This document shows, piece after piece, positions 972 to 20,823 of a DNA stretch of 64,000 nt (its first letter is position 1; every line of letters starts with the position of its first letter). The notes under the pieces were generated by a model. It did no database searches, was not told the origin of the DNA, and saw only the letters and a program-made list of their open reading frames with translations. Source of the DNA: Mesorhizobium sp. (GTDB taxonomy: Bacteria; Pseudomonadota; Alphaproteobacteria; Rhizobiales; Rhizobiaceae); assembly GCF_965229135.1 (NCBI RefSeq), contig NZ_OZ245860.1, forward strand, positions 1,231,849 through 1,295,848, written 5' to 3'. Position numbers and translations under genes: made by a program.

Positions 972-987
972 AAGGGGACTGCCAAGT

Positions 988-2958: not shown

Positions 2959-3030
2959 GGTTGCACTCAGCTTTCAGAATTTTGCACGGATAGTGCGGGA
3001 ATGGTTCGTCTGCGGGCTTGTCTTGCGTCG

Positions 3031-4464
3031 CTAAGCGACGGGCAGCGGAATGACAGCGACCTGCTTCCAGTTGGCTTTGCGGAGGCGATAGATCGCGATC
3101 GGGATCAGGCACACCACGATCGTGCCGATGATCATGAAGAGTTCGAACGGCAGCGGGTCTTCCTTGACCTGCGTAGGCGGCAGCAGCGAGATCACGAAAA
3201 TGAAGGCGGCGGCGACAATCCCCCACCCGGCCATGAGCCACATGCCGAGCTTGCCTCCGGGTATCCGGAACTTTCGCGGCGTGTCCGGCTGGCTGTATCG
3301 CAACCGGATGGCGGCCGCGTACATGAAGAAATACATGACGATATAGACTGAAGTCGTCAGGGCGAAGAGCGCCCAGAAGCCGGCGCTGACGCCGCCTGGC
3401 AGCACAACGAAGACCGCTCCCCAGAACGTCACCAGAACAGCCTGCAGGAACATGAGCGCGGTCGGTACACCCTGCTTGTTTTCCTTTTGGAACACCGCGG
3501 GCAGAAGTCCGTCGCGCGCTGCCACACTCAGTCCGCGCACCGGGCCCAGCACCCAGGCGATAACTTCGCCCACGGCCCCGACGATGATGAGAACACCGAC
3601 GACAGGGGTAATCCAGCTAAGCCCCGGACCGAAAACGACCTGAAAGCTCTGCATGATTCCGGCGATCAGGCTCAGGTTCTTCACCGGAACGATCCACGCA
3701 ACGACCAGGCCGCCGATTACGCTTGTGACCGCCATGATAACGCCGACGACGAGGATCGCGATCGGGTAGTCGCGGTTGGGGTTCTTCATTTCATTGGCGT
3801 GCGCGGCAGAGACCTCGATGCCAATGAAAAAGAAGACGAATGTGATCAGGAGAACGAGATCCCCGGCATCGGAGAACTGTGGAACGAGGTCCCTGGCCGA
3901 CGGGATCAGGGGAATGAGGACGGGGTGGCCAGTCCAGATATAGAGAATACCGCCGCCGATCAGAACGATCATGGGAATGAAAGCCCCCAGGATCACGAAG
4001 AGCGTCGTCCATCGGGCGTAGGTCTTCAAGCCTTGAAGATTGAGCAGCGTGGCTCCCCACCAGACGCCGACGACCACCGCGAAGATAAAGAGCTTGCTAT
4101 CGGCCAATGCGGGGTTGAACAGATAGGCGGCCGTGCCCGCGATAAAGGTCAGGATGCCGATGAAGCCTATGGTCATCTGAAACCACTGCAGCCAGATCGC
4201 GACGAAACCGCATTGCTCGCCGAAGGCCTCCTTCACCCAGACATAGACGCCGCCTTCCTTGGGCCAGCCAGTCGCGAGCTCAGCCGAAACGAGTGATGCC
4301 GGGATCAGGTAGAGAATGATCGCCAGTGCGTTGAAGGCGATGGTCTGCCAGCCCACGAGGGCCTGAAGCGGAAAGGTGCGGATGCTGATCAACACCGCGG
4401 ACGTAATCATGATGAACGTTGGCAGTGACAGGGAATAGCTGGTTGGTTTTGCAGCTGTCGCCAT
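3031..4464 (-). CDS. APC-family amino acid/amine antiporter (GadC/TyrP-like)
   Basis: Polytopic membrane protein. The N-terminus ...LSLPTFIMITSAVLISIRTFP...SAELATGWPKEGGVYVWV resembles the glutamate:GABA antiporter family. I prefer the ATG at 4464 (GGAAG 6 nt upstream) over the track start at 4512. Confidence 0.85.
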   Translation of the reverse strand: MATAAKPTSYSLSLPTFIMITSAVLISIRTFPLQALVGWQTIAFNALAIILYLIPASLVSAELATGWPKEGGVYVWVKEAFGEQCGFVAIWLQWFQMTIGFIGILTFIAGTAAYLFNPALADSKLFIFAVVVGVWWGATLLNLQGLKTYARWTTLFVILGAFIPMIVLIGGGILYIWTGHPVLIPLIPSARDLVPQFSDAGDLVLLITFVFFFIGIEVSAAHANEMKNPNRDYPIAILVVGVIMAVTSVIGGLVVAWIVPVKNLSLIAGIMQSFQVVFGPGLSWITPVVGVLIIVGAVGEVIAWVLGPVRGLSVAARDGLLPAVFQKENKQGVPTALMFLQAVLVTFWGAVFVVLPGGVSAGFWALFALTTSVYIVMYFFMYAAAIRLRYSQPDTPRKFRIPGGKLGMWLMAGWGIVAAAFIFVISLLPPTQVKEDPLPFELFMIIGTIVVCLIPIAIYRLRKANWKQVAVIPLPVA

Positions 4465-4617
4465 GATGTCTTCCGATCCAATTGACTGTGCTTGAATGTC
4501 GCCGATTGCCATTGCCCGGCGCGATACGGTCGGCCGGAGCGATGAATCTCGTGAGCTCGATCATGAGCGCCCAAAACTTGTGTCGAATGGGTTTGATGGC
4601 AAAACGGATTAATTGAA

Positions 4618-4635
4618 AGCATCGGAAACTACCTA
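4618..4635 (-). promoter_or_regulatory. island motif copy A (TAGGTAGTTTCCGATGCT), directed toward the antiporter/decarboxylase operon
   Basis: Matches the 18-nt consensus TGAGTAGTTTCCGACSCT. It lies about 150 nt upstream of, and is co-oriented with, the start at 4464. It is the only copy without a clear TAnnnT hexamer at the expected distance. Confidence 0.45.
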
Positions 4636-4737
4636 CGGTCCGAGGGGGCCGAAGCGAAATTTCCAGGAACATCTCCGCGCGCTAATACGAACGCAGGCAG
4701 GGCCGAGCCGCTGCGTGCCCGCCGATATCTAATCGCC

Positions 4738-4755
4738 TGCGTAGTTTCCGACCCT
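4738..4755 (+). promoter_or_regulatory. island motif copy B (TGCGTAGTTTCCGACCCT) with -10-like TAAGGT at 4778-4783
   Basis: Back-to-back with copy A and co-oriented with the PRC-barrel gene. 22 nt separate the motif from the TAnnnT hexamer. Confidence 0.5.
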
Positions 4756-4955
4756 GTGGGCGCGATCCCTAGAAGGCTAAGGTCAGTTCCAGGCAGCGCG
4801 CCGGCCGGATAAAGGACGATGAATCCTGCACCTCCGGCCAGGTCCCAGGCTCTTTGCTTTGCCTTGGCCTGGCGATGCCGCTGGTATCGATGGCTGATCC
4901 CGCTGCTGTATCACCGACACCTGCGAAACAGACCACGGATACAAGGAAGCTCATA

Positions 4956-5729
4956 ATGTTGAGGCACAAATCAGAAATCATCGGTTATGCCATCGCGGCA
5001 AGCGACGGTGTGATCGGTACCGTTACCGACGTCCTGTTCGATGACACGAACTGGATCATTCGATGGTTGGTTGTCGACACCGGCAAGTGGCTCTCGGGCC
5101 GCAAGGTGCTTCTGCACCCTTCGGCGCTAAAGCACGTCAATCATAGGGGTCACCAGTTCTCCGTCAAACTCACGATGCAACAGGTCAAGGACAGCCCGGA
5201 TATCGACACGGATCAACCGGTGACGCGGCAAATGGAAACCAGCATCTACGATCACTACCCATGGGGTGCGCCCTATTGGTCGACGCCATATTATATGGGC
5301 GGATACGGCTACTACGTGAACGGCTTCGGCTATATGGGCGGGCCAATGGAGGAACAGCTTTCCGATGACGACATTCCACGCCGGCACGGCGATCCGAGCC
5401 TGCGCAGCATGAAATCGGTGAGCGGATATCATATCCATGCGACCGACGGCGAGATCGGCCACGCCGAGGACTTTCTTGTCGACGACAAGGATTGGAGCAT
5501 CCATTATCTGGTGGTCGACACGAACAACTGGTGGCTTGGAAAAAGGGTTCTGATCTCGCCATGGTTTGCGACGGAGATCAGCTGGAGGGATAGGCTGATC
5601 AACGTCGACGTCACCCGACAGACGGTCAAGGACAGCCCGGCCTATGATGCCGCCACCGTGGTGGACCTTGATTACGAGAGGCATTTCCAAAGTCACTACG
5701 GTGATGGGCAACCCAACCTCCACCACTGA
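4956..5729 (+). CDS. PRC-barrel domain protein (two PRC-barrel repeats)
   Basis: Repeated signature IGYAIAASDGVIGTVTDVLFDD..W.IRWLVVDTG and SGYHIHATDGEIGHAEDFLVDDKDWSIHYLVVDT. The ATG at 4956 is preceded by AAGGAAG, so the track start at 4854 is probably too long. Confidence 0.85.
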   Translation: MLRHKSEIIGYAIAASDGVIGTVTDVLFDDTNWIIRWLVVDTGKWLSGRKVLLHPSALKHVNHRGHQFSVKLTMQQVKDSPDIDTDQPVTRQMETSIYDHYPWGAPYWSTPYYMGGYGYYVNGFGYMGGPMEEQLSDDDIPRRHGDPSLRSMKSVSGYHIHATDGEIGHAEDFLVDDKDWSIHYLVVDTNNWWLGKRVLISPWFATEISWRDRLINVDVTRQTVKDSPAYDAATVVDLDYERHFQSHYGDGQPNLHH

Positions 5730-5994
5730 GGTCTTGCCCGGTCTTTTCTGACACTATCATCAGGAGGGATCGGGCGAAGCCGATCCCTGTGAGCTGAGCG
5801 CGGCTGCGCATCGCGCAACAACGCCATGGTGTCGCGCTGGCCTCCATTTGGCGAGTGCGACCGCCGCCCGGAGCCATGTAGTTCATTGAAGATAGCCTGG
5901 ACGGCCGCATGGATTGGAGCTTCTTCGGCCACGTTACAGGCAGGTCCGAGCCTGCACGACAGACCACGAAAACGTTGCTGGCGAGGTTTCGGCG

Positions 5995-6315
5995 TTAGAT
6001 GTCGGATTTGGCCGGGTCAGTGTCGATGTCGGGGCCACGCCAACGAGGTATGCTGAGCTTACCCGTTATGCGGCGGCCCGGAAGACTGCGATCCATCCGG
6101 GTTTCTCCGGCATTGTCACCCAGCCCCAAGCCCGTTCCCGCGCTGGTGTCGCCCGTTGCCCCTCCGAGGTCGAACCCGGGCCGATCCACCGCGCCAGCCA
6201 TGGGCGCTCTTTCCGCGACAATTCGATTCAGGCCCTCGCCCGCGTACTTTCTCCTGGCCTTCTTGAGCCAGGTCGAACCGGACGGCAAAAATCCATGATC
6301 TTTATCGTTTTTCAT
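5995..6315 (-). CDS. hypothetical protein (about 106 aa, Gly/Asp-rich)
   Basis: Internal ATG at 6315 of ORF 5995..6528 (MKNDKDHGFLPSGSTWLKKARRKYAGEGLNR...). Supported mainly by motif copy H lying upstream and co-oriented. I recognise no family. Confidence 0.35.
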   Translation of the reverse strand: MKNDKDHGFLPSGSTWLKKARRKYAGEGLNRIVAERAPMAGAVDRPGFDLGGATGDTSAGTGLGLGDNAGETRMDRSLPGRRITGKLSIPRWRGPDIDTDPAKSDI

Positions 6316-6449
6316 GATGTCACCAAAACCAGAATGTCCAAGGACCAGGAAACAGTTCATCGGAGCGATCGCGTACAGACGGCGCCCTCGATCAAGTCGG
6401 GCACAAGCGACCGTCTGACGCCACCGTACGATCATGCCGAGCCGAGGAA

Positions 6450-6467
6450 AGACTCGGAAACTACTCA
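6450..6467 (-). promoter_or_regulatory. island motif copy H (TGAGTAGTTTCCGAGTCT) with -10-like TACGGT at 6423-6428
   Basis: Lies just downstream of the MscS stop and is co-oriented with the ORF starting at 6315. 21-nt gap to the TAnnnT hexamer. Confidence 0.45.
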
Positions 6468-6493
6468 GATTGACAGTACGAGCGCGAACCAGA

Positions 6494-7558
6494 TCATCGC
6501 CACTTCGGAAACAAGACCCGGCCGGCATCGGCGTTGAGTTTAACGAGCATCTTTCGCAGGAGCACGGTCTTCACGCGCCCGGCTTCCTTGGGATCGACGA
6601 GATAGCGCACCACCGCGTCCAGCCAGCCATCCTCGTTCGTACGGAAGAAGACCGTGGGCTCCTCCCGCACGTCGATCTGGTCGACCGGCGTCTTTTCCAG
6701 AACGGATCGGTAGGCGCGAATGCGCTGCGCCATGACCGCGCCGACCTCTTCCGTAGCCACGCCCAGCAAGATATCAGACACGAAATCCAGGTCGCTGTCA
6801 TACGCGACGTAGAAGCGGATCTCATCCCAAATGTAAGGAAAGAGCTCCCAGGAGTAGTTATAGACCGGAGCACTCAGCACGATCGAATTCGGGAATTTGA
6901 CGATGCGCCCGCTTGGATGATCGGTGGAAAGATATTGGCCCCCAAACTCCCAAAGCGTGGTGTCGAAATAGCTCACGTCGATGACATCTCCGGTCACGCC
7001 GGCGATCTTGATGCGATCGCCGACCCGATAGGGCTTGCGCGACAGAACATAGATCCAGCCGACAAAGCTGGTCATCGGCGTCTGCAGCGCAAAACCCGTT
7101 ACAATCGAGAAGATGCCGATCGCTACGGGCACCGTGTACCAGGTCTGGGAAATCGCGGAGAGAAAGACCAGACAAACCAAGGCTATTGCAATCAGCCTGA
7201 CGACCAGACGCAGGTTGAAAAACGTCACATTGTCATTGAGGGTCTTCTTGTTGATGACAGCATCCGCCAGCCTTTGGACGGCAAGTATGAGCCCGCTCAA
7301 AAGGGCGGCAAGCAGCAGATGAACCGTCAGCGAGCCGTATGACGCGGAGACGCCGAAAGCGGCTGCCCCCAGCTTGATGTAGGCCGCCAGGAGCGCCCCG
7401 GGAACCAGCACGCCAAGCACATACCAGTATGTCCGATGCCCATGCCCGCTTCTGTGTTTCTTACCAGCCGCGCTCATCGCCACGGCTTCGTGCATCGCAT
7501 GTTTGACGGGATCCGTGTTCCCACGCACCACCTTCTCGCTCGTCTTGGGATTGATCAT
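6494..7558 (-). CDS. mechanosensitive ion channel, MscS family
   Basis: TM helices followed by the MscS beta-domain signature YRVGDRIKIAGVTGDVIDVSYFDTTLWEFGG. The ATG at 7558 (MINPKTSEK) avoids overlap with the upstream gene; the start is uncertain. Confidence 0.85.
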   Translation of the reverse strand: MINPKTSEKVVRGNTDPVKHAMHEAVAMSAAGKKHRSGHGHRTYWYVLGVLVPGALLAAYIKLGAAAFGVSASYGSLTVHLLLAALLSGLILAVQRLADAVINKKTLNDNVTFFNLRLVVRLIAIALVCLVFLSAISQTWYTVPVAIGIFSIVTGFALQTPMTSFVGWIYVLSRKPYRVGDRIKIAGVTGDVIDVSYFDTTLWEFGGQYLSTDHPSGRIVKFPNSIVLSAPVYNYSWELFPYIWDEIRFYVAYDSDLDFVSDILLGVATEEVGAVMAQRIRAYRSVLEKTPVDQIDVREEPTVFFRTNEDGWLDAVVRYLVDPKEAGRVKTVLLRKMLVKLNADAGRVLFPKWR

Positions 7559-7592
7559 CGCGACAGGCCCGCCTGAACGGTGGCAGACGATC

Positions 7593-9209
7593 CTACGCCC
7601 ATGGCACGGCCGTGCGCGCGAACTGGTGCCAACGATGGCGCAGCCCTTTCTCGCCGTGCTCCAGTTCGGCCGCCTGACTGGCCAGGATGGCAGCGATGGC
7701 GCCATTGGGGTGAGCCAGTTCCTGCCTATGCTTCAACTCGCCTATTAATCCGGGCGTGCGGGCAATGTCATTGAAACGTCCTAGCGTATCCTGGAGGCGC
7801 GCCAAAGCTTGCGCATAACGCTTCATCTGTTTCGTCTTGCCGACCACGGGAAGCAGGAAATCAGCGACATAACGCAGCTTCTTGAGGGCTATCCGCAACT
7901 GATGGCGCTGATCGGCAGCAAGATGATCAAAGTGCCTGCCGCGCTTTATCGCCTTTCGATGCAGCGCACCGAGCACATCGACCGCAAAGCGCCTTGTTGG
8001 TTTTGACAACTGCGCAAGCCCTTCAGGCGTGGCGTCGCCGCGCCACCCGCGCTGCCGCGCCCACAGGCCCAGTTCGAGCAGGAAGCGGGCGACGTGCTCG
8101 TCCGTCGTTGCTAGACGCCCTTTCTGATGTGCCTCTCGGCGAGCCGTCGCCGCCGTACCGCGAAGATCGTCGTATCCATTCACCGATACGCTTTTGCTCA
8201 AGATGGACGGCACGGTTTCAGTCGCGAAAACATCCCAGTCACGCGCATCTCCCAATGCCGCCTCCAGCCTCTTGGCTTCAGCGCGCAGGCTTTCGATCCT
8301 TGGGGACCCCGAGGTCCGCTTCACGAGGTCAAACGCGGCACGGACACGACGCAAGGCGACCCGCGCCTGATGCACGCCTTCCGGACTGTCGCTGTCACCC
8401 GCGAAGTGCAGATTGCCAACCAGATGCGTCAGGACGCTGGCGAATATCGCGGCGAAGGATTCATCGAGCGGTTGTCGTGGCGAAAGATCTGGTTGGCAAG
8501 CCTTGAGGGCCGTCGGCTTTGAGCCAAGCGCCAGATCGAAACCTCTGTCGGCCTTTGCCCTCGAGCTCGGCATAAGTACGCCTGACTGACCGAGAGCGAG
8601 TGCGAGTTGATAGAGCGCAGCCGTTGCGCCTGCCTTTAGTTCGAGTTCCACTTCGGCGACCGGTTCGGTCTTGTCACCCGAAACGACCCGCCCCCTGTCT
8701 ATTGCGACTTCAATGATGGACGAGGAAAACGACAGGGTTGTCTGCTCGCGGTCGATCTCGGTGGTGAACAGCGGTTCGAGAGCGGCTTCGCCGATTCTCT
8801 CCAGCACGTCCGCCGGCAACAGGCCCTGAAGCCGTATGCGGTCCACGTCCTGACTGGACACAGCGCACTCCCATTCGCCGCGCAGAAGCTCGTCAGAGGC
8901 GCTGTCTGCCGAGCTTTTCACCGTCATGACATAACCATCCCCGTCATCTCTTACGCGAAGCGTGAAGCCATCCTTTCGCAGCGCACGATCCGGCGTGTCG
9001 TAGTAGACAGACGTCAGCCGGCGTTTCTTGTGATCCAGGACATGTCCATGCAGGATCGGCGCGGCGGCAATATTGTCGAGTTCGTCCGGCTTTGCGACCA
9101 GCATCTTGAGTTCGATTTCTCGACCAATCCCCGCCGTGACGCTAGGCGGCGGCGCGTGGCCGCCGGAAACAGACGTTTGAATGCCGGGAACTGGTGCCCG
9201 CATGTTCAT
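7593..9209 (-). CDS. CYTH plus CHAD domain protein (triphosphate tunnel metalloenzyme family)
   Basis: N-terminal EIELKMLV... CYTH signature with acidic/basic tunnel residues. The C-terminal helical region (VHQARVALRRVRAAF..., LRIALKKLRY) is typical of CHAD. Confidence 0.85.
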   Translation of the reverse strand: MNMRAPVPGIQTSVSGGHAPPPSVTAGIGREIELKMLVAKPDELDNIAAAPILHGHVLDHKKRRLTSVYYDTPDRALRKDGFTLRVRDDGDGYVMTVKSSADSASDELLRGEWECAVSSQDVDRIRLQGLLPADVLERIGEAALEPLFTTEIDREQTTLSFSSSIIEVAIDRGRVVSGDKTEPVAEVELELKAGATAALYQLALALGQSGVLMPSSRAKADRGFDLALGSKPTALKACQPDLSPRQPLDESFAAIFASVLTHLVGNLHFAGDSDSPEGVHQARVALRRVRAAFDLVKRTSGSPRIESLRAEAKRLEAALGDARDWDVFATETVPSILSKSVSVNGYDDLRGTAATARREAHQKGRLATTDEHVARFLLELGLWARQRGWRGDATPEGLAQLSKPTRRFAVDVLGALHRKAIKRGRHFDHLAADQRHQLRIALKKLRYVADFLLPVVGKTKQMKRYAQALARLQDTLGRFNDIARTPGLIGELKHRQELAHPNGAIAAILASQAAELEHGEKGLRHRWHQFARTAVPWA

Positions 9210-9326
9210 GGCTTCCTCCGATGCCGGTTCGAATTGTGTTGGCTTTCCGCCAACGCTATCGCCGTCGAACGCGCGACGTCCGGCTATTGTGTCGAGGAGT
9301 ATAGGCTTGGCGCAGTGCTTTTCGGG

Positions 9327-9344
9327 AGCGTCGGAAATTACTCA
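9327..9344 (-). promoter_or_regulatory. island motif copy F (TGAGTAATTTCCGACGCT) with -10-like TATACT at 9298-9303
   Basis: Co-oriented with the CYTH-CHAD gene (start 9209). 23-nt gap to the hexamer. Confidence 0.5.
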
Positions 9345-9460
9345 CGCCAGATCTCCGGCGGATGGCCGACCCACCCAAAGTTCTTCCGCGCCGATGCCAG
9401 CCGGCCCTCGCTTCGGAGCGGCTCCGGGACGGTTCGGCACGAAATGCCCGACGCAAAGTC

Positions 9461-9883
9461 TCAACCCTCGCCTTTGCCCCGGCCGATTGTTTTTCGTGGC
9501 TCGGGCAGCAAGGACGGCTCGTCGGTGGATGCCCTGCCCAGCGCGCTTGCAACGGCACGTGCTAGGTCGGATTCGCGATATGGCTTCTGAATCACCACAG
9601 CGCGCGGGTCGCGGCGGCAGTTCGTCAGGATGTCGCCAGTCGCGAAGATGTGCGGAATGAAAGTTGACTTGAGGATTTCCTCTACCGCCGCGATGCCGCT
9701 TCCCATACTCAGACGTACGTCCACGATCATCACATCCGGCCTCGTCGCCAAAGCCGCTTTTACCGTCTCTTCTTGTGTCTGGGCAGACGCGCATACCGTG
9801 TGCCCCATCTCTTCAAGCATCTCGACAAGCATCATGCTTATGAATGGGTCGTCTTCAGCGACCAGGATACGAAGGCTACTCAT
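9461..9883 (-). CDS. single-domain response regulator (receiver only)
   Basis: MSSLRILVAEDDPFISMMLVEMLEEMGH...PDVMIVDVRL... shows the acidic pocket and phospho-acceptor Asp context. No output domain. Confidence 0.9.
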   Translation of the reverse strand: MSSLRILVAEDDPFISMMLVEMLEEMGHTVCASAQTQEETVKAALATRPDVMIVDVRLSMGSGIAAVEEILKSTFIPHIFATGDILTNCRRDPRAVVIQKPYRESDLARAVASALGRASTDEPSLLPEPRKTIGRGKGEG

Positions 9884-10068
9884 GCGAGTGGCTCTCCGCC
9901 CGCTCCGCCTTCATTGATCCAGGCCTCTATCTGGAGGCGCTGCAGCAGCTTCAATCTGCCATCCCGTCGACGATCGGTTGTTTCGTCACCCGGCTGGGTA
10001 TAGTCGTGGCGCGACCAAACCACCATCTGTGCCCTCGACTGTTCTGGAACTGGCTGCATTTCGTTCAT
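9880..10068 (-). CDS. small hypothetical protein (62 aa), translationally coupled to the response regulator
   Basis: Its stop overlaps the regulator ATG (ATGA at 9880-9883). Weak RBS. No family recognised. Confidence 0.45.
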   Translation of the reverse strand: MNEMQPVPEQSRAQMVVWSRHDYTQPGDETTDRRRDGRLKLLQRLQIEAWINEGGAGGEPLA

Positions 10069-10345
10069 CTAAAAACTTCTTATCCGTTGTATCTTGGCGC
10101 TAAGCCCATATTGAAATCCGAGCCGCGCCAAATATGGCTCCAGAGAGCCGAGCGAGGCTAAAGCCCTTGGTCCCACTTTTTGTCCGTGGCCGGCCACGAA
10201 GGATGGCGGAGGGGACGGCCATTCGCAGCCGGCCACGTGACGGTCATGAACGGCGCCTCATAGGTTCGTTCAGGATCAGGAAGCTGGCGCAGAGCGGCGC
10301 GGCAAACCCGACCATAGGATCATACGCCTTGCCGTCGATATCGGC

Positions 10346-10363
10346 AGCGTCGGAAACTACTCA
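10346..10363 (-). promoter_or_regulatory. island motif copy G (TGAGTAGTTTCCGACGCT) with -10-like TATGAT at 10319-10324
   Basis: Co-oriented with the sORF/response-regulator pair. 21-nt gap to the hexamer. Confidence 0.5.
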
Positions 10364-10455
10364 TGCAATTTTGCTAAGTCTTAGGTCGGATGCGCCGGCC
10401 CCGTTTTGGCTATCGTGTCCGTTCACGCAACAGTGTTTCCGTGCGACGAAACCCT

Positions 10456-10481
10456 GGAACTTGCACGCCCCCTGCAACGTT
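10456..10481 (+). promoter_or_regulatory. EcfG-type (general stress response ECF sigma) promoter: GGAAC-N17-CGTT
   Basis: GGAAC at 10456-10460, a 17-nt spacer, and CGTT at 10478-10481. It lies about 170 nt upstream of, and is co-oriented with, the hybrid kinase start at 10652. This is an exact match to the alphaproteobacterial EcfG consensus GGAAC-N16-17-CGTT. Confidence 0.55.
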
Positions 10482-10651
10482 AGCGGTGGACGAGATCGAG
10501 AATCGATTTCAATCAAAATGATTTCCGCGAACGCACCGTAGGCTCCTAAGCGTCCCTTGGCCACCAATCTCAAGCGTTGCTGTGCGGCGATGATACCAGT
10601 GCTAAACTCGGATTGCCCGTTCCCTGCGGAGCTGGCCCAAAGGAACCCAAA

Positions 10652-13600
10652 ATGCCTGGGACCACACCCGACCATGCGGAGACGGCGCGACCGTCGCCGA
10701 GCGGGTCCTTGCTCGCGGACGCCTTTGATCCGACCAATTTCCGAGTTGTCGCCATAGGCGCCTCCGCAGGAGGATTGGAGGCTTGTCAAAAGCTGCTGGA
10801 TGCCCTTCCGACAAAGCCGGACATGTCATTTCTGCTGGTACAGCATCTGGATCCCTCGCATAAAAGTCTGATGGCCGAGTTGCTCGGCCACCATACGACC
10901 ATGACAATTGCAGAGGCAGCCAACGGCACGGCAATCGAACCGAACCACCTTTATGTGATACAGCCCGGAACATATCTGGCCGTAAAGAACGAGACATTGG
11001 TCGTGTCCAAACCCAGCGCGCCCCACGGAGCGCGCTTGCCGTTCGACTTCCTGCTGAACGCGGTTGCCAACGAGTATGGCGCAAGAGCCATCTGCGTCGT
11101 ACTTTCAGGAACAGGCGACGACGGCAGCGTCGGACTGAGGGGAATAAGCGCCAGAGGCGGCCTGGTCATAGCGCAGGATCCGCAGGAAGCAACGTTCGAC
11201 GGCATGCCCCGAAGCGCCATAGCCACAGGCCTTGTAGACCTCGTCATGCCTGTCGGGCGGATCGCCGAAGCGCTGGTTGCCAGAACCGCACCGTCTACCC
11301 ATGACATTATCGAACCACTCGATACCCCATCAACCGAGCGCGCGCGCGCTGAGATCATCGAATACCTGCGCACTCAAACCGGGCACGATTTCACGCATTA
11401 CAAGACCGGGACTCTCCAGCGCCGCATCGAGCGGCGCATGGGCATGGCTGCGGTCAAGTTCGACGACATGACCGACTATCTGACGCATATCAAACAGGAC
11501 GAGGCCGAAAGCAACGCACTGGCCAAGGACCTTCTCATCCATGTCACGCGTTTCTTCCGTGACCCCGAGATATTCGAATTTCTGACCAGGGAAATCATTC
11601 CGGGTCTGGTAAAAGCCGCGGCCCCGGAGCGCGCGCTCCGGATATGGATCGCTGGCTGCAGCACTGGCGAAGAGGCGTACTCCCTTGCCATTCTGTTCAG
11701 GGAGGCAATCGATGCCGTCGACAGCCGATCGAAGCTGCATGTATTCGCCTCGGACATAGAAGCCGACGCCATCGCAACGGCACGCGAGGGCTTCTACGGG
11801 CATGCGATCAACGCTGACATTTCGGAAGAGCGGCTCGCCAAGTTCTTTTGCCGGGAAGACACTGGCTACCGTGTCTTGGCCGAGCTGCGCGCTACGGTCG
11901 TCTTCACGGTGCAGAACATCCTGTCAGATCCGCCCTTCTCCAGACTGGACTTCATTTCCTGCCGCAACATGCTGATCTATCTCGGGCCAGATGCCCAGAA
12001 GAAGGCTATCGCGCTGTTTCACTTCGCGCTCAATGACGGCGGAATGCTTTTCCTGGGAAGCGCGGAGACGGTCGGCAACGCGGAGGGCCGCTTTGAAGCC
12101 GTAGCCAAGTCCCAGCGGGTCTACCGGCATATTGGCCGAAGCCGCCCCGGCGTGTTCGCTTTTCCGTTGGCCGCCGGCGCGGTCGATATGTCGCCTTCCA
12201 GGCTTGGGCAGCGCCGCACCCTGTCTCGCCAGGCAACGCTCGGCGAACTCTGTCGTCAGATGATACTGGAATCCCATGCGCCGGCGGCAGTGGTGATCAA
12301 TCGCAAGAATGACTGCCTGTATGCCGTTGGTCCAATCGACCGTTACCTGAGCGTGGCTCAAGGGTCGCCAACACTTGATCTGCTCGCGCTCTCGCGGAAG
12401 GGCATTCGCAACAAAGTTCGAGCGGCTGTTCAGCAAGCTGTGCAGACAAATGCTCGTGTTCGACTTTCGGGCGGACAATCCGAGCGCGACGGGGTCGCGA
12501 TTTCGCTGAGCATCGACGTCCAACCCTTCATAAGCGAGGGCGAAGACCTTCTGCTTGTTTGCTTTCATGAACAGGCATCTCGCGCGGTGCATGGCGCATC
12601 TGCCCTGCCTGAGGACGTACCGCGTATAGCTGAACTAGAGCTGGAACTCGACGACACTCGAACGGAACTTCAGAATGCCATTCGCAACCTGGAGATATCC
12701 GGCGAGGAACAGAAAGCCATCAACGACGAGACGCTCTCGGTCAACGAGGAGTATCAATCGACGAACGAGGAGTTGCTGACCTCGAAGGAGGAGTTGCAGT
12801 CGCTCAACGAAGAGCTGACGGCCCTCAACAGTCAACTTCAGGAAACGCTGGAACATCAGCGCACGCTGTCCAACGACCTTCAGAACGTGCTGAACAGCAC
12901 GGATATAGCGACCGTATTTCTCGACCGGGATCTCAATATCCGTTTCTTCACGCCGGCGACGAAGCAGCTTTTCAACGTCATTCCAGGCGATGTGGGACGC
13001 CCCCTTGCCGACCTGGCCTCGATGGCGACCGACACCGCACTTCTGATAGATGCCCGCACGGTGCTTGAATCACTCGCCCCCATCGAAAGCGAGATCGAAG
13101 CAGCCGACGGCACTTGGTACATGCGGCGGATCCAGCCGTATCGGACGCAGGACAACCGCGTTGAAGGCGTGGTGATCACATTCGCTGATATCACCAACCG
13201 ACGGCACGACGCGGACGCCCTGATCGCCGCCAAGCGCGAGGCTGAACAGGCGACCGCGGCGAAGTCGAGGTTCCTTGCGGCCGCAAGCCACGATCTTCGC
13301 CAGCCGCTCCAGACACTGACCTTGGTGCAAGGCCTGCTTGCCAGGACGGCCAAGGGCGAGAAGCAGGAGAGACTGATCGCGCGTTTCGATGAAACGCTCG
13401 ATGCCATGACCGGGATGCTCAACGCCCTGCTCAACATCAATCAGATCGAAGCCGGCATCGTTCGAGGCGAAATCACGAATTTCGCGGTTGGCGACCTGCT
13501 GTCCAGGCTTGGACGTGAGTTTGTCTATCTCGCTCAGGCAAAGAAATTAGAACTGCGCCTCGTCACGACCAATTTGCGGGTCCGCAGCGACCCGCATCTT

Positions 13601-15040
13601 CTCGAACAGATTATCAGAAACCTGGCAGCCAACGCCTTGAAATATACCAAATACGGCAAGGTGTTGATCGGTTGTCGCCGTCACCTCGGCAAAGTCAGTA
13701 TCGAAGTGTGGCATACAGGACCAGGCATCGAGGGCGATGACTTGCAGGCAATCTTCGACGAGTACTACCAGATCGACAACGCTGCTCGTGAGACAAGCAA
13801 GGGGCTAGGCCTTGGCTTGTCGATCGTCAAGCGTCTCAGCGACCTGCTCGGTCACGACGTGCGTGTTCATTCGATCCTCGGAAAGGGCTCGGTCTTCGCG
13901 ATCGAAATCCCGCTTGCCGCGGACGAAGCTGAAGGCACGGAAGACAAGGTTGCAAAGCAAGAGATCACATCGCTTCCGACGGAACGACTCGCCGCCGGTG
14001 CGATTCTCGTGGTGGAAGATGATCCGGAAGTCCTTGAAATGCTTGAAGACCTGCTGAAGGACTCCGGCCACCATGTGCTGGTCGCTCCTGATGGTGCGTC
14101 CGCGCTTGAACTGACGCTGCATGGGGCCATCAGGCCCGACATCATCCTGGCGGATTTTGGGCTGCCGGGAAAAATGGACGGTGTGAGAACGGCAATTACG
14201 CTTCGCGAAAAGCTCCACAGGTCGGTTCCAGTGATCATACTCACCGGCGACATTTCCGCCGACACCTTGCGGGTTATCGCACAGAATGGGTTTGCACAGC
14301 TCCATAAGCCCGTCCGACTGCAGGACCTGACCAGCCTTATCCAACGTCTCTTATCCGACGAACGCGCATCATCTTTAGTTGCCGAAGAACGCGCGGAAGC
14401 GAACGAGGCGGTCGCGGCGCCGACGATCCACATCGTGGACGACGACACAAACATTCGTGAAAAGATCAAACGTGTGTTCGAGGATGACGGATACATAATG
14501 GAGACCTACGAGAGCTGCGAGGCTTTCCTCGAAAGCAGCAAGAGGAACCTTCCGGAATGTCTGCTGCTCGATGCCTACCTGCCGGGAATGAGCGGGTTGC
14601 AGCTCCTTGAAAGACTGCGTCAGCGGGGCGATGTCCTTCCCTCGATCATGATCACCGGCGAGAGCGATGTGTCGATCGCGGTGGAAGCCATGAAAGCAGG
14701 GGTTTCCGATTTCATCGAGAAGCCGATCGGCCTCACGGAATTGCGTGCCAGCGTACACCACGCGCTCAATCTGGCACGGGATTCGAACAGGCGGGCCCTG
14801 TCGCAGGAATCAGCCGCGTTGCACATGGCTGAGTTGACCCTGAGACAGCGCCAGATCATGGATCTCGTGCTGGCAGGCCACCCCAGCAAGAACATCGCCG
14901 CTGACCTCGGAATCAGCCAGCGGACGGTTGAGAACCATCGCGCGGCCATCATGAAGAAGACAGGCTCGAAGTCGCTACCGGCGCTCGCAAGGCTCGCGGT
15001 CACGGCTGTCAAAGTTCCAACGGAAACCAAGGTCTCCTGA
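10652..15040 (+). CDS. CheB methylesterase - CheR methyltransferase - PAS - coiled coil - PAS - histidine kinase - receiver - FixJ-type receiver - LuxR HTH fusion protein
   Basis: Domain evidence in order:
- CheB-like: VVAIGASAGGLEAC...GTGDDGS.
- CheR-like: IWIAGCSTGEEAYSLAILF...CRNMLIYL.
- Coiled coil: NEEYQSTNEELLTSKEELQSLNEEL.
- HisKA: FLAAASHDLRQPLQTL.
- HATPase: GLGLGLSIVKRL.
- REC1: ILVVEDDPEV...ILADFGLPG.
- REC2: IHIVDDDTNI...LLLDAYLPGMSG.
- LuxR HTH: LTLRQRQIMDLVLAGHPSKNIAADLGISQRTVENHRAAIMKK.
The ATG at 10652 has AGGA 7 nt upstream; the track start at 10577 is less likely. Confidence 0.9.
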   Translation: MPGTTPDHAETARPSPSGSLLADAFDPTNFRVVAIGASAGGLEACQKLLDALPTKPDMSFLLVQHLDPSHKSLMAELLGHHTTMTIAEAANGTAIEPNHLYVIQPGTYLAVKNETLVVSKPSAPHGARLPFDFLLNAVANEYGARAICVVLSGTGDDGSVGLRGISARGGLVIAQDPQEATFDGMPRSAIATGLVDLVMPVGRIAEALVARTAPSTHDIIEPLDTPSTERARAEIIEYLRTQTGHDFTHYKTGTLQRRIERRMGMAAVKFDDMTDYLTHIKQDEAESNALAKDLLIHVTRFFRDPEIFEFLTREIIPGLVKAAAPERALRIWIAGCSTGEEAYSLAILFREAIDAVDSRSKLHVFASDIEADAIATAREGFYGHAINADISEERLAKFFCREDTGYRVLAELRATVVFTVQNILSDPPFSRLDFISCRNMLIYLGPDAQKKAIALFHFALNDGGMLFLGSAETVGNAEGRFEAVAKSQRVYRHIGRSRPGVFAFPLAAGAVDMSPSRLGQRRTLSRQATLGELCRQMILESHAPAAVVINRKNDCLYAVGPIDRYLSVAQGSPTLDLLALSRKGIRNKVRAAVQQAVQTNARVRLSGGQSERDGVAISLSIDVQPFISEGEDLLLVCFHEQASRAVHGASALPEDVPRIAELELELDDTRTELQNAIRNLEISGEEQKAINDETLSVNEEYQSTNEELLTSKEELQSLNEELTALNSQLQETLEHQRTLSNDLQNVLNSTDIATVFLDRDLNIRFFTPATKQLFNVIPGDVGRPLADLASMATDTALLIDARTVLESLAPIESEIEAADGTWYMRRIQPYRTQDNRVEGVVITFADITNRRHDADALIAAKREAEQATAAKSRFLAAASHDLRQPLQTLTLVQGLLARTAKGEKQERLIARFDETLDAMTGMLNALLNINQIEAGIVRGEITNFAVGDLLSRLGREFVYLAQAKKLELRLVTTNLRVRSDPHLLEQIIRNLAANALKYTKYGKVLIGCRRHLGKVSIEVWHTGPGIEGDDLQAIFDEYYQIDNAARETSKGLGLGLSIVKRLSDLLGHDVRVHSILGKGSVFAIEIPLAADEAEGTEDKVAKQEITSLPTERLAAGAILVVEDDPEVLEMLEDLLKDSGHHVLVAPDGASALELTLHGAIRPDIILADFGLPGKMDGVRTAITLREKLHRSVPVIILTGDISADTLRVIAQNGFAQLHKPVRLQDLTSLIQRLLSDERASSLVAEERAEANEAVAAPTIHIVDDDTNIREKIKRVFEDDGYIMETYESCEAFLESSKRNLPECLLLDAYLPGMSGLQLLERLRQRGDVLPSIMITGESDVSIAVEAMKAGVSDFIEKPIGLTELRASVHHALNLARDSNRRALSQESAALHMAELTLRQRQIMDLVLAGHPSKNIAADLGISQRTVENHRAAIMKKTGSKSLPALARLAVTAVKVPTETKVS

Positions 15041-15055
15041 GACCGTCCTAGCTAC

Positions 15056-15073
15056 TGAGTAGTTTCCGACCCT
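15056..15073 (+). promoter_or_regulatory. island motif copy C (TGAGTAGTTTCCGACCCT) with -10-like TAACAT at 15097-15102
   Basis: Lies 16 nt after the kinase stop and is co-oriented with the 52-aa ORF at 15171. 23-nt gap to the hexamer. Confidence 0.5.
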
Positions 15074-15170
15074 GTGTCCGCCAGGCGGAAACGCGGTAAC
15101 ATCCGGTCGTTGCGCGAGCGAACTATTGCATGGGTACATGCCTGAACCCCTTATCAAGCAGGAGCGTGCG

Positions 15171-15329
15171 ATGCCAAACAGATACGACAATTTCGTGCGT
15201 CGAGAGAATATCAAGAATTTCGAAGAGAAGTTGAGCACGGAAACCGACCCGGAAAGACGCAATCTGCTTCTTAAATTGCTGTCCGAGGAGGCTGCTGGCA
15301 GATTTTTGATCGTTAGTCTAACACCATGA
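15171..15329 (+). CDS. small conserved-looking hypothetical protein (52 aa)
   Basis: MPNRYDNFVRRENIKNFEEKLSTETDPERRNLLLKLLSEEAAG... with AGGAG 5 nt upstream of the ATG. It resembles small helical proteins common in Rhizobiales; that comparison is from memory and not verifiable here. Confidence 0.55.
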   Translation: MPNRYDNFVRRENIKNFEEKLSTETDPERRNLLLKLLSEEAAGRFLIVSLTP

Positions 15330-15439
15330 TTGCTCACTCCGGTGCCACACCCCCTCCCTGCGCTCGCCAGACTGGCACTTTTGCCGCCAAGACCAAGACG
15401 AACGCTTGACGCGAGACCGTCGCGTTCGATGTTGAAATC

Positions 15440-15577
15440 GCCTTGCCTTCGCGCGCCGGCGCCACAAATCGTGGTCTTGGTGATCTTGACGATGGCGTCG
15501 GTGGGCGCCGGGATCGATGGTTTGGGCCGCTCTTCAAGCGACTTTCTGCCAAGTCCCGAGTAGACAAGTGCTTTCAT
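15440..15577 (-). pseudogene. remnant of a Zn-dependent alcohol dehydrogenase (N-terminal ~45 codons only)
   Basis: Minus-strand ATG at 15577 gives MKALVYSGLGRKSLEERPKPSIPAPTDAIVKITKTTICG, the canonical MDR/ADH N-terminus up to the catalytic Cys. After that the similarity collapses and no ADH body follows. Confidence 0.5.
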
Positions 15578-15660
15578 TGCTTGGTGCCGATCATTCGGTT
15601 TCGTGCAGGTGCCATGCTGGTTGTCGGCTAGATCGTATTGGCGGGAACCGCCGCCGGGAA

Positions 15661-15678
15661 AGCACCGGAAACTACCTA
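15661..15678 (-). promoter_or_regulatory. island motif copy D (TAGGTAGTTTCCGGTGCT) with -10-like TACGAT at 15632-15637
   Basis: Co-oriented with the ADH remnant (ATG at 15577). 23-nt gap. It shares the extended form GAAAGCAYCGGAAACTACCTASGG with copy A. Confidence 0.5.
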
Positions 15679-15740
15679 GGGGCATTGCCGTCAGGCTCTC
15701 GAAAACAGCCGCGGCGACTGACGCTGGACAGGTCCTTTTT

Positions 15741-15758
15741 TGAGTAGTTTCCGAACCT
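15741..15758 (+). promoter_or_regulatory. island motif copy E (TGAGTAGTTTCCGAACCT) with -10-like TAATGT at 15781-15786
   Basis: Back-to-back with copy D and co-oriented with the gene at 15906. 22-nt gap. Confidence 0.5.
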
Positions 15759-15905
15759 GCTCCCCAGTGACCAACCCGCCTAATGTCGCGTCTCCGTGTC
15801 AGCAGGCGCACGCCCTGAAAGCGGGGCGTTGCGTGACTGTAACATATTGAAAAGGCTCTCGGATCAGGTGCCGGGAGAAGCCTTTCCATCCAAAGGAGAA
15901 CGAGA

Positions 15906-16466
15906 ATGAAGACCATGACAGACGCTGCCGTCGCCATATTCCCCGATCACGAAGCGGCGGAATCGGCCGTTAAACAACTAAGTGCCGCAGGATTTGCAAT
16001 CGGCAGCTTGAGCGTCGTGGGCAAGGGCTACCACACCGACGAGAAGGTCGTGGGCTTCTACAACGCCGGCGACCGCATCACGTTCTGGGGAACGCGCGGT
16101 GCTTTCTGGGGCGGCCTGTGGGGCCTGTTTCTGGGCGGCATGTTCATAACGCTACCGCTGGTCGGACCGGTGGTAGCGGTGGGCTATTTCGCTGCAGCCT
16201 GGATTGCCGCGTTGGAGAGCGCGCTTGTCGTCGGCGGCTTGAGCGCACTTGGCGCGGCGCTCTACAGCATCGGCGTGCCCAAGGACAGCGTCATCCAGTA
16301 TGACAGCGCGATCAAGGCCGACAGCTTCATTGTGATGGCTCATGGAACACCTGAAGAAGCGACTCGAGCCAAGGCTATCCTCGGCACCTTGAAGCCATCG
16401 CGCCTTGATGTGCATTCCGGCCTTGGCAAGAAGCACGCCGCCGAGCTTGCCCTCGCAAACGGCTAG
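15906..16466 (+). CDS. general stress protein 17M-like / DUF1269-type membrane protein
   Basis: N-terminal soluble domain (AVAIFPDHEAAESAVKQLSAAGF), then glycine-zipper TM segments (FWGGLWGLFLGGMFITLPLVGPVVAVGYF). AAAGGAGAA RBS. Confidence 0.8.
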   Translation: MKTMTDAAVAIFPDHEAAESAVKQLSAAGFAIGSLSVVGKGYHTDEKVVGFYNAGDRITFWGTRGAFWGGLWGLFLGGMFITLPLVGPVVAVGYFAAAWIAALESALVVGGLSALGAALYSIGVPKDSVIQYDSAIKADSFIVMAHGTPEEATRAKAILGTLKPSRLDVHSGLGKKHAAELALANG

Positions 16467-16675
16467 CCGAGGTTCTGGTTTGCGCGCGATTACATGAAAT
16501 CGCTCAGGACACAGCCCGCCGAGCCTCGCCGAGGTTGGGTGGGCTTTCACGTCCTGGAAAGCCTTGAAGGACGAATGCCCCGCGCTCTCGTCGAGAGCGG
16601 CCTTGTCGGAAGATCGACTGGCTGAGAGCGGCAGTGCCCGGGGCCACTAACGGCATCATCTGCCTCCCGGCACGT

Positions 16676-17131
16676 TCAGTCGTCGATAGCCATGACGCGG
16701 ACATACCCCTCCAGTTGAAGCGACCGATCCCGGATGACGTTGGTCGCGTCCGATGCCTGCATGGGCACGAACATCGTGCCCTGCCTTGTTTCGTACAACG
16801 CATCCCGTGCCTTCGTTTCGCTGTCGCGGAAGGACAGCCACGCGCGCTGTGACAGGCGCAATTGCTGCGCTGCCTTCTCGGGCAATTTGTGCATGAGGGT
16901 CGCATAGGCGGTATTCATGCGGCGATCGTAGTCGCTCGACGCCGCCGCCTCGCATTCTGTTTGACCGGCGGTGGAGGCATTGGCCGGGTCGTTCAGACAG
17001 CGGTCGAGTGTCGCGGCGGTAGGATCTTCCAGTGACGCGCCCATCAGGCTGGCCGGAGATGCCAGCACCAGCAAACAGGCCAGCACAGCTTTCGCTGCAA
17101 CCAGTTTACGGCCTAAGCGCTCGATCTGCAT
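16676..17131 (-). CDS. DUF1311 / LprI-family (lysozyme inhibitor-like) secreted protein
   Basis: Signal peptide, then ...CLNDPANASTAGQTECEAAASSDYDRRMNTAYATLMHKL...RLSQRAWLSFRDSE. The ATG at 17131 is preceded by GGAGG. Confidence 0.8.
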   Translation of the reverse strand: MQIERLGRKLVAAKAVLACLLVLASPASLMGASLEDPTAATLDRCLNDPANASTAGQTECEAAASSDYDRRMNTAYATLMHKLPEKAAQQLRLSQRAWLSFRDSETKARDALYETRQGTMFVPMQASDATNVIRDRSLQLEGYVRVMAIDD

Positions 17132-17716
17132 GTCACCTCCAGACATCTTCCCATCAGGGTCGCGCTGTAGCAGGTTCCTGGCTCTGACCACGGAACTTAG
17201 CCGGCCAATGACCCTGCTACAGGATAACGTAGACTAGCCTCTCTTCCTTGACGGTTTCAAACGTCGTCGCCGACAATCTGTCTTCCACCGCGCAAAATGG
17301 CGCGTTGCCGACGGCGGTTTCATACCTGCGCACCTTGATGCGGACCGGAACACCGGTGACGCGATTGCCGGACAGCTGCGCGAGGAAGGCATCAAGGTCA
17401 AGCGCACGGTTCTGCCCGGTTTGACGCGGCGAGGCCCTCTCGGTAGCGGACCCAGCCAGGCACAAAGCTCTGATGAGCGATATCCAGAAGATCCTCCAGG
17501 ACTCGGACGTCATCATCCAGCCTTACTGGCGCAAGCTCTGCGATCACTCCGCTGCGTCAGTGAAAAACCACGGCATGCACCCGACCTACGAGCACGACTT
17601 CGGCAAAGTCTGGCTCGACGAGCCGTGAAATAGCCTCACGCATTCGAACGGCGATGGCGAACGGATTGCCGCCAAAGGTGCCGCTGGCGACGGTTCAACC
17701 CACGGATTGAGGCGCT

Positions 17717-18805: not shown

Positions 18806-19157
18806 CTGGACCTGTACGCAAAACACAACAGACCGAAGGCACACACAGAAAGCCGCCGGACAAATCAGACCGAGTTATGAATGAGAAATTACCAATAAAG
18901 TTTGAATCAAAATTTTATTGCCGGTGTGATGGTAAACACACGGCGGCCGAGGATCAGGGGCGGCAAATGGTGCACCCCTCGCCGGCCATGTGGCGGGAGG
19001 ACCTCCGGCTGTGTGGCCGGCGTGACCCCCGAAGGCGGAATTCGACGATATGATGGGCGCGAAGGCGTGCGCCGCGCTTGACAGTCCCCGACGAGGCTGT
19101 TCAGGAAACAGGCAGCGCGGTCGACCGCCCATGCCCTCCGATCCCGAAAGGCGCTAG

Positions 19158-20818: not shown

Positions 20819-20823
20819 TCTTG

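Follow-up and report, generated by a model that had tools for sequence, protein, structure and literature searches.

The stretch of DNA analysed here, called the window in the following, comprises 64,000 nucleotides of Mesorhizobium sp. (contig NZ_OZ245860.1). In its left part lies an island of stress-type genes in which an asymmetric motif of 18 nucleotides (nt) is repeated eight times, and the same island encodes a large protein of 1462 amino acids (aa) that joins a sensor kinase to a C-terminal receiver and helix-turn-helix (REC-HTH) region. The present analysis points to the motif as a FixJ-type box, and the fused REC-HTH region is the probable reader of it.

Motif copies and neighbouring genes

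A preliminary description of the window had reported eight intergenic copies of the motif, all directed toward genes, and this was borne out by pattern and core searches, by a repeat finder and by the positions of the open reading frames (ORFs). All eight copies lie between ORFs and each is oriented toward the nearest downstream ORF (Table 1). The degenerate pattern TRVGTAGTTTCCGRNSCT had 6 exact matches in the 64-kb window as compared to 0 expected (100 shuffles). The formula given earlier describes six copies exactly; the other two, 6450-6467 with a T at pattern position 16 and 9327-9344 with an A at position 7, deviate from it at one position each and are still clear copies. Seven exact occurrences of the 10-nt core GTAGTTTCCG were counted, plus one that has a single mismatch (9332, GTAATTTCCG), all of them inside 4618-15758; read copy by copy, the core is GTAGTTTCC in 7 sites and GTAATTTCC in 1. 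An independent repeat finder retrieved all 8 copies, as families D1 and D4, and it was found that the similarity among them is confined to ~19-27 nt with nothing conserved further out. The earlier statement that the remaining 48 kb hold no further copy stands, as a scan of the window found zero sites at <=4 mismatches outside 4618-15758. Matches with five mismatches number 5 in all against ~9.6 in shuffles, which is the background level. In 7 of the 8 copies a TAnnnT hexamer starts at motif position 40-42, i.e. 21-23 nt past the end of the motif, and the hexamers are the same as those listed before. Transcription is predicted to begin 6-8 nt beyond these hexamers, near 4790(+), 6416(-), 9291(-), 10312(-), 15109(+), 15625(-) and 15793(+).

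Table 1. Motif copies with their -10 hexamers, and the genes beside them
Feature	Position	Strand	Remarks
Motif copy 1, variant TAGGTAGTTTCCGATGCT	4618-4635	-	Faces GadC-like antiporter / pyridoxal phosphate (PLP)-decarboxylase operon; back-to-back with copy 2
Motif copy 2, TGCGTAGTTTCCGACCCT	4738-4755	+	-10 TAAGGT 4778-4783; ahead of PRC-barrel gene
Motif copy 3, TGAGTAGTTTCCGAGTCT	6450-6467	-	-10 TACGGT 6423-6428; faces hypothetical ORF of ~106 aa, start 6315(-)
Motif copy 4, TGAGTAATTTCCGACGCT	9327-9344	-	-10 TATACT 9298-9303; ahead of CYTH-CHAD and MscS genes
Motif copy 5, consensus TGAGTAGTTTCCGACGCT	10346-10363	-	-10 TATGAT 10319-10324; divergent from kinase gene; ahead of 62-aa small ORF (sORF) and single-domain receiver
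Motif copy 6, consensus TGAGTAGTTTCCGACCCT	15056-15073	+	-10 TAACAT 15097-15102; faces 52-aa ORF
Motif copy 7, variant TAGGTAGTTTCCGGTGCT	15661-15678	-	-10 TACGAT 15632-15637; orphaned promoter of decayed Zn-alcohol-dehydrogenase (Zn-ADH) gene
Motif copy 8, TGAGTAGTTTCCGAACCT	15741-15758	+	-10 TAATGT 15781-15786; ahead of YflT-type general stress protein
Tyrosine-decarboxylase-like PLP enzyme	988-2958	-	Predicted target operon 988-4512
GadC/TyrP-like amino-acid antiporter	3031-4512	-	Predicted target operon 988-4512, with decarboxylase; acid-resistance-type content
PRC-barrel protein	4854-5729	+	Predicted target
MscS-type channel	6494-7705	-	Predicted target operon 6494-9209
CYTH-CHAD protein	7593-9209	-	Predicted target operon 6494-9209
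Single-domain receiver	9461-9883	-	Motif-preceded; probably SdrG / PhyR-receiver-like
62-aa sORF	9880-10068	-	Between promoter 5 and receiver gene; status as a real gene uncertain
Proposed sensor and regulator, 1462 aa	10652-15040	+	CheB esterase, CheR methyltransferase, coiled coil, PAS, HisKA-HATPase, REC1, FixJ-like REC2-GerE HTH (Pfam)
52-aa ORF	15171 onward	+	Downstream of copy 6
Zn-ADH pseudogene remnant	15461-15577	-	First 39 codons alone recognisable
YflT-domain general stress protein	15906-16466	+	Predicted target

The genes beside the sites form a predicted co-regulated set of stress type, in agreement with what had been proposed. The remnant of an ADH gene had also been recognised correctly: in 8 other loci that bear the motif, Zn-ADH genes have N-termini with 68-74% identity to its 39 codons from 15577(-), after which its frame decays, and a Zn-ADH is the next ORF downstream of the motif in 6 loci (Pfam). 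The remnant has no match to the adhP gene of a motif-bearing Phyllobacterium plasmid because the latter belongs to a different ADH subfamily.

The single-domain receiver contains the sequence IPHIFATGD. A PFxFATGY-type motif in beta4-alpha4 of a stand-alone receiver defines the FATGUY (SdrG/PhyR-receiver-like) type, to which the protein may belong; its best NCBIfam match is the PhyR-family receiver, with 92 bits, far under its full-length cut-off. The sORF in front of the receiver gene ends in EAWINEGGAGGE, and its C-terminal AWxNEGGAGGE is common to one other locus (L058, AWVNEGGAGGE there). In Methylocystis an unannotated gap of ~400 nt separates the site from the receiver gene, in which a similar sORF could be hidden.

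Back-to-back pairs of divergent sites are frequent, with 62-139 nt between motif starts. They are found at 4618/4738 and 15661/15741 in the window and, in other loci, at 24501/24597 (L121), 24759/24916 and 36483/36596 (L123), and 28332/28463 and 34361/34460 (L126). The leftward member of each window pair is a weaker TAGGTAG...TGCTTTC variant. To the right of the island lies a cell-wall-related cluster (16676-20818) encoding an LprI-like lysozyme inhibitor, a GH25 lysozyme, a DUF1402 protein and a BTLCP transglutaminase-like protease; it is without motif sites. The G+C content is 57.5-61% in positions 1-16500 and ~59-64.5% in 16500-30000. The lower value of the motif-bearing region may be read as a weak hint of an acquired island, in line with the plasmid and insertion sequence (IS)-flanked contexts seen elsewhere.

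The FixJ-type core and the fused candidate regulator

The consensus determined in vitro by SELEX (systematic evolution of ligands by exponential enrichment) for FixJ of Sinorhizobium meliloti is GTAGTTTCCC, and the site in the fixK promoter is TAAGTAATTTCCCTTA (PMC4999443). The core GTAGTTTCC of the window sites agrees with the SELEX consensus at 9/10 positions and matches the fixK site TAAGTAATTTCCC. Motif positions 1-12, T[GA]AGTA[GA]TTTCC, match the fixK site TAAGTAATTTCC, and the fixK1 site was located directly in the S. meliloti pSymA sequence, 86 nt upstream of the fixK ATG. All 12 of these positions agree between the fixK site and a site of Acidiphilium cryptum pACRY01 (TAAGTAATTTCCGATACT). 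Because the core fits both the SELEX consensus and the fixK site, positions 1-12 of the motif are, judged by sequence, a FixJ box. The preliminary description, which had seen no described rhizobial cis-element in the motif, was mistaken on this point. Its remark that the motif has no dyad symmetry is true of the sequence but is no argument against a regulator of the FixJ/NarL type. The location also resembles that of FixJ boxes, since in silico 7 of the 8 window sites overlap the -35 region of a sigma70-type promoter or adjoin it on the upstream side. The 3' conserved half differs, being CCGA-NN-CT here as against CCCTTAGT in fixK.

A regulator of the corresponding family is encoded within the island. 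The C-terminus of the kinase protein consists of a receiver with conserved residues followed by a GerE/LuxR-type HTH (Pfam Response_reg and GerE), as in FixJ/NarL response regulators. It was the sole REC-GerE regulator found in the annotated ORFs of the window, which cover it up to ~52 kb; no fixL, fixJ, fixK or other REC-HTH regulator is among them, and the other ORFs belong to ordinary metabolism and transport. Compared with the PDB, the C-terminal 200 aa matched StyR with 1e-34 and FixJ of Bradyrhizobium japonicum with 1e-33, and the C-terminal region is 42% identical to S. meliloti FixJ. The acidic pocket, the phospho-Asp, the Thr and the Lys of the C-terminal receiver are conserved (DDD, LLLDAYLPG, ITG and EKP, aligned with the StyR and FixJ structures). 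The recognition helix reads ISQRTVENHRA in the kinase and ISPRTVEVHRA in S. meliloti FixJ, and it is nearly invariant in 6 orthologues from 4 orders (among them Phyllobacterium, Methylocystis, Sphingomonas, Acidiphilium and Caballeronia). With the NCBIfam FixJ equivalog NF006900 the protein scores 206.6 bits, below the curated cut-off of 255, and because of this the C-terminal REC-HTH is best classed as a FixJ-like paralogue and not as FixJ. This region had been proposed earlier as one candidate regulator, and it is now the candidate to which the sequence comparisons point best.

The coiled coil between CheR and PAS (residues ~700-770 of the TTG-started translation) contains many Glu/Gln pairs (...NEEYQSTNEELLTSKEELQSLNEELTALNSQLQE...) and in this recalls the methylation helices of chemoreceptors. 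As a speculation, this coiled coil may be the substrate of the CheR and CheB domains of the same protein.

Control of the motif promoters by EcfG was considered and rejected. As had been noted before, none of the 8 sites is an EcfG box (GGAAC-N16-17-CGTT). The sole EcfG-type box in the window, a perfect GGAAC-N17-CGTT, lies at 10456-10481(+), ~196 nt before the start codon of the kinase gene. In front of the orthologous kinase genes the strict pattern was found in 0/15 loci, and a relaxed one (GGAAC-N16-20-GTT) only in the window among 22 loci. Because it is absent from the 21 other loci examined, the box would be either lineage-specific or due to chance. If it is real, the kinase would be under the general stress sigma factor.

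Occurrence in other genomes and linkage to the kinase

An exact scan of one genome per species with the 15-mer TGAGTAGTTTCCGAC returned at least 120 loci, and 8 kb were taken per locus. By our own estimate the chance hits of the 15-mer in that genome collection are of the order of a thousand; real and chance sites were told apart by the continuation NCT, by taxonomy, by further conserved columns and by the -10 signal. The continuation, which was no part of the search, was present in 80 of the 122 matches listed as compared to 6% by chance. The NCT-continued matches listed come almost all from Alphaproteobacteria of many orders, together with a Paraburkholderia and a Rhodanobacter. When 77 sites from other genomes among the matches listed were aligned, G19, Y20 and C21 were conserved and a sharp -10 signal (T41/A42/T46) appeared at a fixed distance, with flanks otherwise unconserved. 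The consensus of the element is T[GA][AGC]GTA[GAT][TA]TTCCGA-NN-CT-g, 18-19 nt. With the -10 hexamer set at -12 to -7, the element is predicted to occupy about -52 to -33 of sigma70-type promoters, and its 3' CTGyC stands in the place of the -35, with only a weak resemblance to TTGACA. These alignments support what had been suggested earlier, namely that the motif precedes a sigma70-like -10 at a constant distance and occupies the place of a promoter-proximal activator site.

A total of 115 further sites (<=3 mismatches) was found in 1.2 Mb of the loci listed as against ~1.5 expected, the expectation being a hand estimate and not a tool result, and many of the listed 8-kb loci have 3-5 sites. 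Because of these additional sites and their clustering, the element is a widespread, clustered promoter component and is not private to this genome. The term private, used in the preliminary description, holds in so far as the copies are local within the window, but the same 18-19-nt element with its -10 spacing exists in many alphaproteobacterial orders and in some Beta- and Gammaproteobacteria.

Matches of the 15-mer outside the Proteobacteria (11 Dehalococcoidia genomes and other phyla) were rejected as coincidences; those in Dehalococcoidia have neither the NCT continuation nor the -10 signal. Ten Dehalococcoidia loci (L003, L034, L044, L050, L063, L098, L106, L107, L116 and L120) share near-identical flanks, ...GATATCATCCTC-motif-TCCGAGGGAGAA..., and the eleventh locus has the same flanks; L098 keeps them to ~57 nt past the motif and then diverges. 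They give the impression of a single conserved coding sequence that has no connection with the promoter element.

Linkage of the element to the kinase was seen in loci that had been picked by the 15-mer alone. Among the 120 loci listed, 15 contain a kinase orthologue (50-60% identity), 11 the receiver, 12 the PRC protein and 8 the YflT protein. A divergent site stands ahead of the kinase gene in 9-10 of the 15 orthologous loci listed, as at 10346-10363, and likewise in L121, L125 and L126. Full-length kinase orthologues including the HTH occur on plasmids of Methylocystis, Phyllobacterium, Sphingomonas, Lichenicola, Polymorphobacter, Methylocapsa, Asticcacaulis, Novosphingobium, Acidiphilium, Rhizobium, Agrobacterium and the betaproteobacterium Caballeronia, and on several plasmids the module is flanked by IS elements. 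A megablast of positions 4000-17000 against plasmids gave no match, and look-ups by exact protein sequence gave none for the YflT protein and the kinase and only a 656-nt metagenome scaffold for the receiver. As a control, the 15 kb to each side of CheB-CheR kinase paralogues that lack the REC-HTH (Methylocystis bryophila, Azospirillum oryzae) were inspected, and they contain no credible site.

Four annotated plasmid loci contain 4, 6, 2 and 6 sites at <=3 mismatches. All 18 are intergenic, and 16 of them have a co-oriented annotated coding sequence starting 52-417 nt downstream. The genes preceded by sites are, on the Phyllobacterium plasmid, the receiver, CYTH-CHAD, oleate hydratase, a YflT-like gene and an adhP-phosphoketolase-acetate kinase operon; on the Caballeronia plasmid, a general stress protein, a universal stress protein (USP), a hypothetical protein, a BON protein and a HAD phosphatase; on the Methylocystis plasmid, the receiver, DUF3309 and an ABC transporter; and on the Sphingomonas plasmid, the receiver, DUF2171, slipin, GrpE and two oxidoreductases. 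Orthologues of the YflT-type stress protein are site-preceded in both Phyllobacterium and Caballeronia.

Some plasmid sites depart from this arrangement. Two good sites, 24759-24776(-) in L123 and 29769-29786(-) in L126, have no annotated gene downstream. Of these two, the one in Caballeronia is directed into the 3' end of the kinase gene and may be the promoter element of an antisense transcript or of a small gene missed by the annotation. In L124, a plasmid labelled Roseateles sp. XES5 (UNVERIFIED_ORG), the kinase orthologue lies in a polysaccharide-synthesis cluster beside a free-standing response-regulator transcription factor, and the single degenerate site (TACGTATTTTCCGAATCT) is ahead of that free-standing regulator. 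The module may have been rewired in this case; repC and DUF1403 genes hint at a plasmid of rhizobial type.

Proposed function, alternatives and comparison with known systems

We consider it likely, though well short of certain, that the box is the operator of a FixJ-family domain, in the first place the C-terminal REC-HTH of the kinase protein, and that this domain activates the local stress promoters. A stress signal would activate the kinase, which in turn would phosphorylate its FixJ-like receiver. The HTH would then bind the box adjoining the -35 region, where the -35 appears weak or replaced by the element (CTGyC), and the bound HTH would recruit or activate sigma70-RNA polymerase at 7-8 local promoters, as FixJ does at fixK and nifA. 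The targets would be the antiporter/decarboxylase operon, the PRC-barrel protein, CYTH-CHAD with MscS, YflT, the small ORFs, the now-decayed Zn-ADH and the divergently encoded SdrG-like receiver. The latter could be a feedback partner or a phosphate sink of the kinase and might connect the module to the PhyR/EcfG network. Kinase, receiver and box would make up a portable module, which on islands and plasmids comes with a regulon of its own.

Several observations weigh against this proposal. It is unusual for a multi-domain protein of 1462 aa to end in a DNA-binding domain, and phosphotransfer among HisKA, REC1 and REC2 would have to run without an Hpt domain. The kinase is absent within the fetched 8 kb in about 65 of 80 motif-selected loci listed, so that linkage in cis is frequent and not universal. 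Copy 1 at 4618-4635(-) lacks a -10 at the canonical spacing (TAnnnT at +40). The geometry is not identical to that of fixK either: the fixK site is reported with TAAG at -64 and with footprints at -69/-44 and -57/-31, and the box here (-52) is ~12 bp nearer the start than the distal fixK site. Finally, since the core matches the SELEX consensus and the fixK site, canonical FixJ or a paralogue of it could bind the same core.

This last point leads to an alternative in which the motif copies are ordinary FixJ boxes, bound by the canonical oxygen-responsive FixL-FixJ pair or by some other free-standing paralogue of FixJ whose gene lies elsewhere in the genome. The island would then be part of a hypoxia regulon and the kinase incidental. 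Regulon members in other genomes (Zn-ADH, phosphoketolase, acetate kinase, pyruvate formate-lyase and USP) do look like a low-oxygen fermentative set, and the loci where the kinase was not seen fit such a reading. However, the motif and the HTH-bearing kinase co-occur far above chance and move together onto a betaproteobacterial plasmid, whereas the HTH-less paralogues are without sites nearby. The conserved CCGA-NN-CT differs from the corresponding half of fixK, the comparative FixJ regulon comprises fixK, nifA, fixX and SMc03253 only, and fixLJK was not found among the annotated window ORFs, up to ~52 kb. It is because of the linkage data, the distinct 3' half and the targets outside the fix genes that the HTH of the fused kinase is favoured over canonical FixJ, which we regard as unlikely but as an explanation to be kept in mind.

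It is quite improbable that the fused protein binds the box as a repressor or roadblock, or that the sites serve some purpose other than transcription, for instance in nucleoid structuring or recombination. Repressors, too, can act at the -35 region, which the site overlaps, but the replacement of the -35 by an element only weakly like TTGACA is the situation at activator-dependent promoters, and FixJ is an activator at fixK and nifA. A non-transcriptional role agrees poorly with the strict co-orientation with genes and the fixed -10 distance in >70 promoters. Still less probable, and in our opinion very doubtful, is that the element is the extended -35 of promoters for a dedicated alternative sigma factor, of the extracytoplasmic function (ECF) type or another. 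The fixed distance to the downstream hexamer, the strict orientation and the stress-related genes would suit such a factor, but the TAnnnT hexamer is of the housekeeping type and not the ECF CGTT/CGTC, and the 14-18 conserved bases reach to -52, far longer than any -35. The element does not have the form GGAAC-N16-17-CGTT, and instead of a sigma/anti-sigma gene it is a FixJ-like HTH that accompanies the motif in the window and in the annotated plasmid loci. That the repeats are the ends or relics of a mobile element (a miniature inverted-repeat transposable element or repetitive extragenic palindrome-like sequence), or chance, has a negligible probability and the mobile-element reading is effectively refuted: several copies do lie in a short region of slightly lower G+C and IS elements do flank the module on several plasmids, but zero matches were expected by chance, similarity stops within ~19-27 nt with no conserved interior (a check named in the preliminary description), the flanks in the 77 loci are unrelated except for the -10 columns, the sites keep strictly to the orientation of the genes, and Rfam gave no family match for the element.

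With the fused REC-HTH as the activator, genes for stress and fermentation would most likely be switched on by this module of kinase and motif in many Alphaproteobacteria as well as in a few other Proteobacteria. A wider proposal is tentative, and we would give it slightly less than an even chance: the module may represent a previously undescribed mobile regulon for stress or dormancy in Alphaproteobacteria, parallel to EcfG, in which one polypeptide with CheB, CheR, PAS, kinase, two receivers and a FixJ-type HTH directly activates its own promoters. It would be a methylation-adapting sensor kinase acting as a transcription factor, to which the SdrG-like receiver may add a link with PhyR/EcfG. 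In the literature no description of the extended motif was found, its strings appearing only in unrelated primer lists; figure logos are not text-searchable, and absence is not proven. Likewise, no function assigned to CheB/CheR-fused kinases was found, only papers listing genomes, in a search whose coverage is incomplete and does not prove absence.

In Alphaproteobacteria, chromosomes and plasmids alike commonly encode CheB/CheR-fused hybrid kinases (KEGG K13924). If the proposal is true, the HTH-bearing subset of these kinases gains an operator sequence together with predictions of its promoter architecture and regulon, and beside EcfG there would be a second stress regulon, a transferable one, in the Alphaproteobacteria that live in soil or with plants. 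This regulon would cover acid resistance, fermentation (ADH, phosphoketolase, acetate kinase), proteins of the USP, BON, PRC and YflT types, and channels. Predictions of FixJ sites in rhizobia may include sites of this paralogue, and cross-talk between both systems is possible. The prediction is directly testable with one purified domain and a handful of reporter fusions.

Among known systems, the FixJ boxes of S. meliloti fixK and nifA share with the present element the DNA core (GTAGTTTCC or TAAGTAATTTCC), a regulator of the same subfamily with a near-identical recognition helix, and a sigma70-type promoter whose -35 is overlapped by the site or lies downstream of it; activation through phosphorylation of the receiver would be a further likeness. 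The differences are that the regulator is fused here to its own CheB/CheR/PAS kinase, whereas canonical FixLJ has a free-standing FixJ and a separate haem-PAS FixL, neither of which was found among the annotated window ORFs, up to ~52 kb; that the 3' half is CCGA-NN-CT and not CCCTTA; and that a single site at -52 to -33 stands in place of the two footprints of fixK. The predicted targets here are genes of stress, acid resistance and fermentation (antiporter/decarboxylase, PRC, CYTH-CHAD/MscS, the REC-only protein, YflT, ADH and small ORFs) and not fixK or nifA. Thus, by its targets, its sensor and its equivalog score the system falls outside canonical FixLJ. Mycobacterial DosR (DevR) is a more distant likeness, being a NarL/FixJ-family regulator of dispersed USP, ADH and stress genes with a conserved box near -35. 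It differs by its palindromic box, its free-standing regulator with haem kinases and its unrelated lineage.

The PhyR-NepR-EcfG system resembles the module in gene content (PRC-barrel, YflT/CsbD-type, BON, CHAD and MscS proteins) and perhaps in having a FATGUY-type receiver like SdrG. There an ECF sigma factor reads GGAAC-N16-17-CGTT, whereas an activator at sigma70 promoters is proposed here. In Sphingomonas melonis the orphan hybrid kinase #1746 is EcfG-dependent and the Zn-ADH #2499 is an indirect EcfG target (PMC6599016). The low-oxygen-activated (lxa) locus of Burkholderia cenocepacia is likewise an island with one shared motif in many intergenic regions. It contains USPs, an alcohol dehydrogenase, a cation ATPase and two-component genes, and it aids persistence under stress. 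It was rejected as the same system, its motif being an FNR/Anr-type palindrome, TGA-N6-TCA, read by a CRP-family protein (PMC3721108), in contrast to the asymmetric FixJ-type box and kinase-fused regulator described here. The closest relatives of the kinase itself are the K13924 'CheB/CheR fusion protein' kinases, which have the same N-terminal series CheB-CheR-PAS-HisKA-HATPase-REC and are widespread on alphaproteobacterial plasmids. Within this group the HTH-less members (Azospirillum, Methylocystis bryophila) stand apart, and the motif is linked only to the subset that carries the extra C-terminal REC-GerE.

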